A stretch of DNA of 24,000 nucleotides from Dyella ginsengisoli (GTDB lineage: Bacteria > Pseudomonadota > Gammaproteobacteria > Xanthomonadales > Rhodanobacteraceae). The stretch is taken from positions 1,467,995-1,491,994 of the forward strand of contig NZ_JADIKM010000001.1 of the NCBI RefSeq assembly GCF_044904665.1. The letters are read 5' to 3'. Made by a program: the position numbers and the translations under genes. The stretch's first letter is position 1, and the number at the start of each line of letters is the position of its first letter. The notes beneath the pieces were generated by a model, which did no database searches, had not been told where the DNA came from, and was given only the letters and a program-made list of their open reading frames with translations. Positions 12,831-13,580 of this stretch are shown here, one piece after another.

Positions 12831-13580
12831 ATGGCGAGGTGTCCTGAGTGCCGCGAGAACCTGACCGCCGACGGCATCGGCCATGCGCGGGACTGTTCCC
12901 GATGGCGGGGGCGGGCTCGTCTCACGCCGAGTGATGCCCAGGAACTGCGGGAGGAGCGTCGGCGGCAGGAGATCGCGCAACGCGAGCGCGAGGCGGAGCG
13001 TCGCCGCCAGATCGTCGCCCGGACCAGCGCGGCGCTGCTGGGGGCGGCGCCCACCACCAGCTCCAGCCGGTCCTCCCTCGATGACGTGGCCTACAACGTG
13101 CATAACGCCTATGACTGGCAGGGGCGCGGCGATCAATGCGTCACCGCGGTGGTGCGCAAGAGCAACGGACGTCATGTGGTGTTCGCGCAGCGTTTCATGA
13201 CCGCGATGGAGGAGTACGGCACCCGTCATTACGCCGATCACGACCTCACGTTCAAGCCGGGTGGTGGCTCGCATCTGCATGCGGAGATGTATGCCGTACT
13301 GCACTACCTGCTGCGCGGCAAGCACCCGGGGCGCGAGATCGAGCGCATCGGGGTCAGCAAGCCGATCTGCCCGCTGTGTCGGGCGGTGCTGACCTATCTC
13401 GGCATCCGGTTTTCGGAAAGCTGGGTGACCGCGGAGGCCAGTTCGCACTGGCTCGACCCCTGGAGCCTCTTGCCGTCGACTTGCAAGCCGCCGGTCAAGC
13501 ACTGGCGGAAGGACGAGGACCCGGACGATGGCGTGGGAGGTGGCGGTGGCAGCTCCTTCTCGTCGCCGATCACGGTGTGA
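12831..13580 (+). CDS. Zn-knuckle + Arg/Glu-rich helix + deaminase-fold protein (HAE / PCxxC)
   Basis: In-frame ATG at 12831 with an upstream GAGGGA. N-terminal C4PEC7...H18ARDC22 forms a zinc knuckle, followed by the charged helix REERRRQEIAQREREAERRRQI and a Ser-rich linker. GGGSHLHAEMYAV (13278-13286), 27 residues, then KPICPLCRAVL (13368-13379) give the deaminase signature. An acidic/Gly-rich tail DEDPDDGVGGGGGSS ends the protein. Confidence 0.68.
   Translation: MARCPECRENLTADGIGHARDCSRWRGRARLTPSDAQELREERRRQEIAQREREAERRRQIVARTSAALLGAAPTTSSSRSSLDDVAYNVHNAYDWQGRGDQCVTAVVRKSNGRHVVFAQRFMTAMEEYGTRHYADHDLTFKPGGGSHLHAEMYAVLHYLLRGKHPGREIERIGVSKPICPLCRAVLTYLGIRFSESWVTAEASSHWLDPWSLLPSTCKPPVKHWRKDEDPDDGVGGGGGSSFSSPITV

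Follow-up and report, generated by a model that had tools for sequence, protein, structure and literature searches.

An OTT_1508-like deaminase with a putative N-terminal zinc knuckle in the variable island of a Dyella ginsengisoli type VI secretion cluster

Deaminases of the OTT_1508 clade were delineated in a 2011 survey by an HxE motif, a GxxK motif ahead of CxxC, and a loop after strand 4 that carries a polar residue (usually His) and an aromatic-x-x-P motif; the survey predicted that they deaminate cytosine and are delivered by type VI secretion systems (T6SS) and Photorhabdus virulence cassettes, and it already noted versions without immunity genes (PMC3239186). The cytosine prediction of Iyer et al. 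was drawn from an APOBEC-like loop. In the literature searched, the only characterized members of the clade are the fungal OLD proteins, which are endogenous A-to-I editors of a few mRNAs (the zao transcripts), act on adenosines in hairpins, and take part in antiviral signaling (PMC12754623). The present study concerns a bacterial gene of this type, at positions 12831..13580 of a 24,000-nucleotide stretch of the Dyella ginsengisoli genome (contig NZ_JADIKM010000001.1; the whole stretch is hereafter called the window), which lies in the variable island of a T6SS gene cluster.

Two other kinds of system bear on this gene. The deaminase toxins DddA, SsdA, and DddB, from bacterial deaminase toxin families (BaDTF) 1 to 3, are each encoded with an adjacent immunity gene (PMC13346905). 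The T6SS cluster itself resembles those of group 3 of the Xanthomonadales, in which, according to a review of that group (PMC6653060), a variable insertion of 2.2-15.6 kb separates two blocks of structural genes. According to the same review, the Dyella clusters are the closest relatives of the Xanthomonas citri T6SS, which protects against predation by amoebae and confers no advantage against other bacteria, and whose effectors are still elusive; the text available there reports no deaminase effector, the sole deaminase in it being an orphan PAAR/Rhs-MafB19 protein of Xanthomonas oryzae.

We propose, with moderate confidence, that 12831..13580 encodes a cargo effector of this group 3 (X. citri-like) T6SS that deaminates nucleic acid of the recipient, and that a putative zinc knuckle at its N terminus is probably the handle by which it is loaded. 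New in this analysis are a defined four-element cassette common to T6SS, toxin complex (Tc)/Rhs, phage, and standalone versions of the protein, a clade-specific CCHC knuckle, a parallel Zn-ribbon family in the same islands, and a documented lack of a conserved immunity partner.

The gene and its predicted deaminase domain

That 12831..13580 is a real gene, with ATG 12831 as its true start, is confirmed. Its translation is identical to the one quoted in a preliminary description of this DNA. The G+C content at third codon positions (GC3) is 0.83 within the open reading frame (ORF) as against 0.60 in the in-frame extension back to TTG 12558, a Shine-Dalgarno sequence stands before ATG 12831, and homologs from nine other loci begin with the same M/V-A-R-C; these observations rule out the longer ORF from TTG 12558. 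No promoter-like or terminator-like sites were found in 12000..14100. The features of the gene are as follows.

12817..12823, + strand: Shine-Dalgarno sequence GAGGGAG, 7-nt spacer to ATG 12831 (read from the sequence)
12831..13580, + strand: whole gene, a 249-residue protein (27.9 kDa, pI 8.9) plus stop codon; GC3 0.83
12831..12896, + strand: putative CCHC knuckle, residues 1-22, M-A-R-C-x-[ED]-C-x3-L-T-x-D-G-I-G-H-x3-C, ligands conserved
12897..12923, + strand: Arg-rich basic segment, residues 23-31 (SRWRGRARL), net charge +4
12924..13043, + strand: Arg/Glu-rich charged helix, residues 32-71, with the conserved T-P-x-[ED]-A-x-E at its start
13044..13502, + strand: OTT_1508-like deaminase core, residues 72-224, matched by Pfam PF14441 above the gathering cutoff
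13278..13286, + strand: H150-A-E152, predicted zinc ligand (His) and catalytic Glu where helix 2 begins (from conservation)
13350..13379, + strand: G174-V-S-K177-P-I-C180-P-L-C183, GxxK followed by the predicted CxxC zinc ligands (C180 and C183 invariant)
13446..13460, + strand: H206-W207-L-D-P210, polar residue and aromatic-x-x-P of the loop after strand 4 (from conservation)
13503..13577, + strand: tail, residues 225-249, acidic block and Gly run, closing with a few hydrophobic residues (…ITV)

Judged by its sequence, the product is an OTT_1508-clade deaminase with intact catalytic residues. The Pfam model OTT_1508_deam (PF14441) matches residues 149-213 at 33.7 bits (cutoff 27; E = 3.6e-8) and recognizes 27 of the 28 family members. 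All four signatures of the clade are present and conserved. Across 28 homologs H150, E152, C180, and C183 are invariant or nearly so, the HAE triplet showing almost no variation in the full alignment and none in that of the core; G174 and S176 are at least 90% conserved, as is W207, and P210 is invariant. An AlphaFold2 model built on the family alignment (mean predicted local distance difference test score, pLDDT, 84; predicted template modeling score, pTM, 0.71) has an order of secondary-structure elements that fits the deaminase fold, and in it HAE and CxxC lie where the predicted helices 151-161 and 181-190 start. A six-frame search of the 24-kb window for [HC]AE-x20-45-CxxC gave three matches, each in a coding frame and within 2.3 kb of the island, whereas codon-shuffled windows contain 0.19 matches on average and at most two. 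No NCBIfam, PADLOC, or PHROGs model matches the ORF. A search of PDB sequences with the family profile gave chance-level matches only (for example annexin, E = 0.6), which indicates that no close relative has a solved structure.

The preliminary description had presented the protein as a three-part deaminase, and its observations are confirmed while its interpretation is partly supported. The knuckle, C4-x2-C7-x10-H18-x3-C22, lies where it had been placed, as do the HAE triplet at residues 150-152 and, after a spacing of 27 residues, C180-P-L-C183; the charged segment said to follow the knuckle is modeled by AlphaFold2 as one helix, residues 33-71; and the assignment to a deaminase family in a T6SS effector context agrees with the Pfam match and the position in the island. 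The segment called a Ser-rich linker is instead the conserved N-terminal edge of the deaminase domain (P-x-T-x3-R-S-x-L-D-D). Of the three-part plan itself, the separable knuckle stands; the helix and the tail are not equal parts alongside it, as they travel with the deaminase as one cassette.

Homologs are rare. There are 27 among 5.8 billion clustered proteins, and a scan of one genome per species found them in only 4 of 185,579 species: a Dyella sp. metagenome-assembled genome (MAG), Lysobacterales bacterium 15-68-25, Xanthomonas bonasiae, and Xanthomonas sp. AmX2. The copy in the Dyella MAG is 96% identical and sits in an island with the same gene order as in the window. When 1.84 billion representative proteins were searched with a profile built on the core domain alone, 80 clusters matched at E ≤ 0.001, 15 of them at E ≤ 1e-10. 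Searches of phage and plasmid collections (tblastn) and of a viral-structure collection returned no relative of the ORF. Among the T6SS-island copies, one from a metagenome (L011 2233..2976) is a pseudogene with a frameshift after residue ~150 and HAE changed to HAG in the continuing frame, and that of Xanthomonas sp. AmX2 (P0007, 316 residues; L007 10001..~10950) runs beyond the Gly run into ~90 unrelated residues, an extension that is probably due to a frameshift or a lost stop codon.

A portable cassette and a clade-specific zinc knuckle

Nearly all members of the family share a basic cluster, the T-P-x-E-A-x-E motif, an Arg/Glu helix, and the deaminase core. The basic cluster lies directly ahead of the T-P-x-E-A motif and is conserved family-wide, including in versions that are Tc and Rhs cargo. 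The helix (residues 33-71, pLDDT 88-96) is 55% charged and 13% hydrophobic over its first 31 residues, with only 4 oppositely charged i/i+4 pairs; toward the C terminus, the last third of the helix is hydrophobic and might lie against the domain. Its length and high charge thus resemble an ER/K-type single alpha helix (long, isolated, rich in Glu and Arg/Lys, poor in hydrophobic residues), and the few charge pairs and the hydrophobic third do not. Across the family it spans 30-40 residues, is Arg/Glu-rich, 45-60% charged, and ~10% hydrophobic, and it is kept in nearly all members as well as in the Tc/Rhs cargo modules. The tail, which had been singled out as unusual, is not peculiar to this protein: the sequence DEDPDDGVGGGGGSSFSSPITV (residues 228-249) is one case of an acidic/Gly tail that the majority of the family carries, as do the phage relative P0038 and two relatives fused to Tc/Rhs scaffolds, P0034 and P0037. 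Its hydrophobic end reads ITV, IAA, IVV, IVA, or similar among members, and residues 232-249 are disordered in the AlphaFold2 model (pLDDT 37). We also considered the basic segment as a classical nuclear localization signal. This idea is weak: the motif K-[KR]-x-[KR] is absent throughout the T6SS/knuckle clade, where the clusters contain Arg only, and is found in the Tc/Rhs cargo versions and many standalone copies.

Among the matches to the core profile, the deaminase core forms the extreme C terminus of several delivery scaffolds. These comprise SpvB, TcdB_midN/midC, and RHS domains in P0037 (2393 residues) and P0034 (1522 residues, partial), PT-HINT and RHS in P0066, and an eCIS_core (DUF4157) cargo domain at the start of P0048 and P0053. 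After the Rhs end motif (…DPxG…LNLY…), both P0034 and P0037 continue with a Lys/Arg cluster, a charged helix, the deaminase, and an acidic/Gly tail; the clusters read KRKKNNDDKKKNK…RRTPQEA in P0034 and PRKRRRTS in P0037, and the tails GGDDDGSGSGGGMGGGMLSSQFLQTVH and DQDPSAGGGGRQVAVA, respectively. P0037 is a protein of Ktedonosporobacter (Chloroflexota; locus L016 6738..22201). Its gene (P0037/P0107) lies 81 bp upstream of a gene for a 2733-residue TcA protein (VRP1, ABC_toxin_N, Neuraminidase, and TcA_TcB_BD domains), with no gene between them, and P0037 is therefore the cargo of a genuine Tc toxin. At this locus the deaminase cassette occupies the place of the TcC hypervariable cargo, and no immunity gene is present. 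Characterized Tc-class toxins act on eukaryotic cells.

The cassette is also found outside these scaffolds. P0038 (L015 1..8738) has the same basic N terminus, helix, and tail (…DDDDESGGGFGGGDPIPASIAVS), and primase, exonuclease, SSB, and Sak4 genes lie near it. Two standalone relatives are preceded, 26-36 nt upstream, by a gene that is phosphoribosyltransferase (PRTase)-like (L003 4493..5449) in one case and 3'-5' exo(ribo)nuclease-like (L008 743..1282) in the other, both by sub-threshold Pfam matches; these pairs could be two-gene conflict or defense modules. Beside the most distant metagenomic relative, an ORF on the minus strand (L013 1606..2184) opens with what looks by eye like an F-box motif (LPAEIHANIASFL), a hint of a eukaryote-interacting organism. 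Present as they are in Tc/Rhs, phage, and standalone versions, the helix and the tail are part of the toxin module, whatever the delivery route.

The knuckle has a narrower distribution. In the family alignment it is restricted to the closest relatives; the other members lack a knuckle, except for P0032, whose knuckle is differently spaced. Where present it follows the consensus [MV]-A-[RK]-C-x-[ED]-C-x3-L-T-x-D-G-I-G-H-x3-C, and the four putative ligands, C, C, H, and C, are intact in every distinct knuckle-bearing sequence except P0004, in which the His is a Tyr. No Pfam match to the retroviral-type zf-CCHC was found, and the spacing, C-x2-C-x10-H-x3-C, differs from the retroviral C-x2-C-x4-H-x4-C. 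When the core domains are compared in a neighbor-joining tree, all copies with a knuckle fall together as one clade, surrounded by knuckle-less standalone forms; the knuckle was therefore gained once.

The T6SS island, its neighbors, and a second zinc-module family

The window is a T6SS cluster, in which the gene under study lies between ClpV and PAAR.

137..652: TssB
659..2152: TssC
2378..2878: Hcp
2927..3724: TagJ/ImpE
3863..6133: TssF
7218..9953: ClpV
9954..16653, + strand: variable effector island from ClpV to PAAR, containing 12831..13580
10600..11253, + strand: unrelated gene of the same island, Zn ribbon plus deaminase-like domain
16654..16941: PAAR, 95 residues, inside a long mechanical ORF (16290..18335)
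16953..18335: TPR and S-adenosylmethionine-methyltransferase protein, real start ATG 16953
18301..20445: VgrG
20460..20999: DUF6931 protein
21064..22488 (GC3 0.90) and 22513..23892 (GC3 0.91): real genes replacing the ORF 21075..23900

The ORF 21075..23900 (941 codons; GC3 0.50) is a frame artefact. By its position, 21064..22488 is probably the FHA/TagH gene.

Ten knuckle-bearing loci have enough flanking sequence to be placed (the window, L001, L002, L004, L005, L006, L007, L009, L010, and L011), and in all ten the gene's island sits directly after ClpV. The order ClpV, variable island, PAAR, TPR/methyltransferase, VgrG, DUF6931, FHA is conserved, and the Xanthomonas-type loci additionally hold one Ser/Thr kinase + TPR gene that resembles PknS. 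Because the order PAAR-TPR/methyltransferase-VgrG-DUF6931 is kept in all related T6SS loci, the conserved TPR-methyltransferase is a candidate accessory or adaptor protein. Of the known loading markers PAAR, MIX, FIX, Rhs, and DUF4123/DUF1795/DUF2169, none was detected by Pfam in the deaminase or its immediate neighbors, the search being limited to markers with library models, which RIX lacks. In the Lysobacterales genome (L005 8284..8979) an Aspzincin_M35-like metallopeptidase ORF takes the place of the first island genes of the window.

We looked for an immunity partner by comparing 18 island proteins with 11 T6SS loci in a tblastn matrix (ten loci with the deaminase, plus L019). The deaminase loci fall into six layouts (window/L004; L005; L001/L002/L006/L010; L007; L009; L011), and at the level of sequence similarity (tblastn, E ≤ 0.01, and BLASTP) no neighbor co-occurs with the deaminase across them, the deaminases themselves being 54-96% identical and their catalytic residues intact. 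The L005 deaminase, at 84% identity, likewise keeps its catalytic residues; the gene for the 346-residue protein downstream of it in the window is there a 67-residue remnant, and the ORF upstream of it is absent. Three candidates were accordingly set aside as conserved immunity genes. The downstream 346-residue ORF (13902/13929..14942) survives only in part in L005 and has no counterpart in the Xanthomonas-type or L009 loci; the upstream ORF (12215/12290..12685) is missing in L005 and in the Xanthomonas-type and L009 loci; and the 320-bp gap after the stop codon of 12831..13580 has no frame with coding-type GC3 that might be a hidden small gene. The gene thus appears to have no conserved immunity partner, which suggests either a target that is not a sibling cell, for example a eukaryotic predator, or a producer that is otherwise protected.

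Further genes of the island resemble toxins. The ORF 11310..12011, between the two zinc-module deaminase genes, is an Endonuclea_NS_2 (DNA/RNA non-specific endonuclease) ORF, and no obvious immunity gene lies directly 3' of it. The ORF 12290..12685 (mechanical ORF from 12215; 131 residues, with a Shine-Dalgarno sequence of its own) carries a third deaminase-like signature, C-A-E ... P-C-E-N-C. Its GC3 is only 0.73, it was found only in the window and the Dyella MAG, and it has no Pfam, NCBIfam, or PADLOC match; it may represent a deaminase toxin of minimal size, or one in decay.

The unrelated gene 10600..11253 has a comparable plan, a Zn ribbon followed by a deaminase-like domain. It has no detectable similarity to 12831..13580 (hhalign probability 0.1%). 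Its family comprises 19 members of 216-218 residues from Dyella, Rhodanobacter, and relatives, and has no Pfam family; C6, C11, C24, and C27 of the N-terminal ribbon, together with C141-A-E143 and P168-C169-x2-C172, are invariant in all 19. An AlphaFold model (pLDDT 74) shows a beta-rich N-terminal ribbon and retrieves mostly deaminases (CDA, APOBEC3, DddB, DYW, SsdA), weakly (best E = 0.008). A 65%-identical member (L019 10001..10651) lies in the post-ClpV island of another genome, in the same type of T6SS, and the two islands have no shared neighbors of the gene. The suggestion in the preliminary description that a small N-terminal Zn module joined to a deaminase is a recurring plan therefore holds up: two unrelated deaminase-like families with N-terminal zinc modules in one island type support a recurring architecture.

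Proposed role, alternatives, and comparison with known systems

The scheme that we infer, which covers catalysis, export, the function of the knuckle, and the organism attacked, is that of a T6SS-delivered deaminase. The catalytic zinc would be bound by H150, C180, and C183, with E152 as the proton shuttle; after delivery, bases in the RNA or DNA of the recipient would be deaminated; and the basic segment and helix would probably engage nucleic acid or serve as a spacer. The knuckle would have been added once, when the cassette entered the T6SS island. The tail might autoinhibit the enzyme through the basic N-terminal region, act as a degron that limits self-intoxication, or aid passage through narrow channels. 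For the putative knuckle, the most likely role is that of a handle for loading onto the T6SS via PAAR, VgrG, Hcp, or the TPR-methyltransferase protein. This role is suggested by its gain with T6SS residence, by its N-terminal position, which in relatives is occupied by delivery modules (the Rhs cocoon or the eCIS_core domain), and by the equivalent module in the second island family.

The target can be argued in two directions. The missing immunity gene, the anti-amoeba T6SS relatives, and the Tc-toxin version point to a eukaryote; the phage version and the antibacterial-looking genes of the islands point to a bacterium. We regard as unlikely a bolder proposal, in which the protein is an immunity-less effector that an anti-predator (anti-amoeba type) T6SS injects into eukaryotic cells, where it edits RNA (A-to-I, as the fungal OLD proteins do) or mutates DNA, the Zn modules of the two island families are a new class of loading tag for this type of T6SS, and the tail, as an autoinhibitor or a degron, protects the producer. 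Another reading, in which the protein acts on DNA cytosine as DddA, SsdA, and DddB do and is a classical antibacterial toxin that kills or mutagenizes rival bacteria, with an immunity protein that is non-homologous between strains or encoded elsewhere, seems to us rather unlikely. It would fit a deaminase in a T6SS island like the BaDTF toxins (PMC7901873, PMC13346905), the nuclease in the same island, the weak Tsi1-like match and lipase in a related one, the cytosine deamination predicted for the clade in 2011 (PMC3239186), and the phage-borne relative, from which the cassette would be able to operate in a bacterial setting. However, no gene co-occurs with the deaminase across the six island layouts, the L005 deaminase is intact although the gene downstream is a 67-residue remnant, and no similarity to BaDTF members was found by Pfam (E ≤ 1) or by a PDB sequence search (E ≤ 10); moreover, the nearest characterized T6SS of the same type is not antibacterial (PMC6653060).

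Two other explanations concern the knuckle and the protein's residence in the island. CCHC knuckles classically bind single-stranded nucleic acids, and the knuckle might be a nucleic-acid- or target-binding finger that tunes substrate choice, with loading achieved otherwise, for example inside the Hcp tube. This is a possible, if doubtful, explanation, to which the Arg-rich, possibly nucleic-acid-binding segment directly after the knuckle lends some weight, as does P0032, with a knuckle of another spacing and no T6SS gene in the flanking DNA examined. The knuckle is nevertheless missing from the Tc, Rhs, phage, and standalone versions, which presumably have similar substrates; a second, unrelated island protein likewise begins with a Zn module; and the non-retroviral spacing and the lack of a zf-CCHC match speak against such a finger. 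That the protein is instead a non-secreted cellular enzyme (for RNA editing, nucleotide metabolism, or anti-phage defense), present in the island by chance, we consider very improbable. The fungal OTT_1508-like OLD proteins are A-to-I mRNA editors in antiviral defense (PMC12754623), standalone relatives stand beside the PRTase-like and 3'-5' exonuclease-like genes, and there is no immunity gene. Set against this, all 10 close relatives with enough flanking sequence lie in the T6SS variable island, the same cassette is Tc and Rhs toxin cargo, the family is very rare, with a patchy distribution (members in 4 of 185,579 species genomes), the L011 copy is a pseudogene, and no PADLOC or NCBIfam model matches.

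Several observations weigh against the preferred reading, a T6SS cargo effector with a loading knuckle. The top Foldseek matches in the PDB are nearly all cytidine or blasticidin-S deaminases and are weak (E ≥ 0.2), and the literature searched holds no biochemical or secretion data for bacterial members of the OTT_1508 clade. The knuckle region is modeled with low confidence (pLDDT 56-68). Its association with the T6SS is a single evolutionary event, confined to a single clade, and so carries little statistical weight. P0032, a distant relative on a separate branch, has a different knuckle, C-K-Y-C-x13-H-x4-C, which was acquired independently of that of the T6SS clade, and no T6SS gene lies near it in 10 kb downstream or in the gene-free 1.1 kb upstream to the contig end. 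The islands hold antibacterial-looking genes, Endonuclea_NS_2 in the window and a weak Tsi1 match and Lipase_3 in L009. P0038 is encoded by an N4-like phage, immediately after the gene for the giant virion RNA polymerase, and standalone knuckle-less relatives occur in unrelated, non-secretion contexts; these standalone and phage copies indicate that neither a single delivery route nor a single target goes with the cassette. The N4-like phage relative also weakens the idea that the cassette as a whole is directed at eukaryotes only. The preliminary description had tied its interpretation to homologs in secretion or toxin contexts, and this held for the close relatives, which are in T6SS or toxin settings, and not for the distant standalone copies in non-secretion settings.

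If the proposed role is correct, the family would be a concrete effector candidate for the group 3 anti-amoeba T6SS. DddA, SsdA, and DddB, which come from three other clades, have each been turned into a genome-editing tool, and a compact, 150-residue bacterial OTT_1508 member could offer a new base-editing scaffold or be the first secretion-delivered RNA-editing toxin. Because one cassette occurs in nature behind a knuckle, behind an Rhs/Tc cocoon, and on its own, the idea that the 22-residue knuckle is a T6SS cargo-loading tag can be put to a direct test, and the lack of an immunity gene poses the problem of how the producing cell escapes damage by its own enzyme.

Compared with known systems, the protein is closest to the OTT_1508 clade as described in 2011 (PMC3239186), with which it shares the HMM match, HxE, GxxK-CxxC, the His plus aromatic-x-x-P, and apparently degenerate C-terminal fold elements. 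In contrast to the clade at large, its subfamily is small and restricted to the Xanthomonadales/Lysobacterales; the basic segment, charged helix, and acidic/Gly tail were not described in the 2011 survey, and the knuckle is clade-specific. OLD-1 and OLD-2 of Neurospora crassa (PMC12754623, PMC13327615) belong to the same clade and have the same HxE...CxxC center, whereas the Dyella protein is bacterial, is encoded in a secretion-system island, and has close relatives that are the cargo of injected toxins. DddA (BaDTF1), SsdA (BaDTF2), and DddB (BaDTF3) are zinc deaminase-fold toxins at T6SS loci, which makes base deamination a plausible analogy for the present protein. They nevertheless belong to other clades (SCP1.201-like, BaDTF2, and Pput_2613-like) and have no sequence match to it; on similarity searches, it belongs to a known Pfam family and not to BaDTF1-3, the structures of which are not among its top 50 Foldseek matches. 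In contrast to these toxins, it has no adjacent conserved immunity gene and is a standalone protein of 249 residues, whereas they are C-terminal domains of larger proteins as far as the available descriptions go. The cluster shares TagJ, FHA, PAAR, and conserved unknown genes beside PAAR and VgrG with the group 3 T6SS (PMC6653060), and its island differs from those of the Xanthomonas-type loci in having no PknS-like kinase. Finally, among TcC hypervariable cargo and Rhs C-terminal toxins, the Ktedonosporobacter TcB-TcC fusion beside the TcA gene and an Rhs protein have the same cassette as their released C-terminal piece, whereas 12831..13580 has no Rhs cocoon; its cassette is preceded by the 22-residue N-terminal knuckle, and its machinery would be the T6SS.

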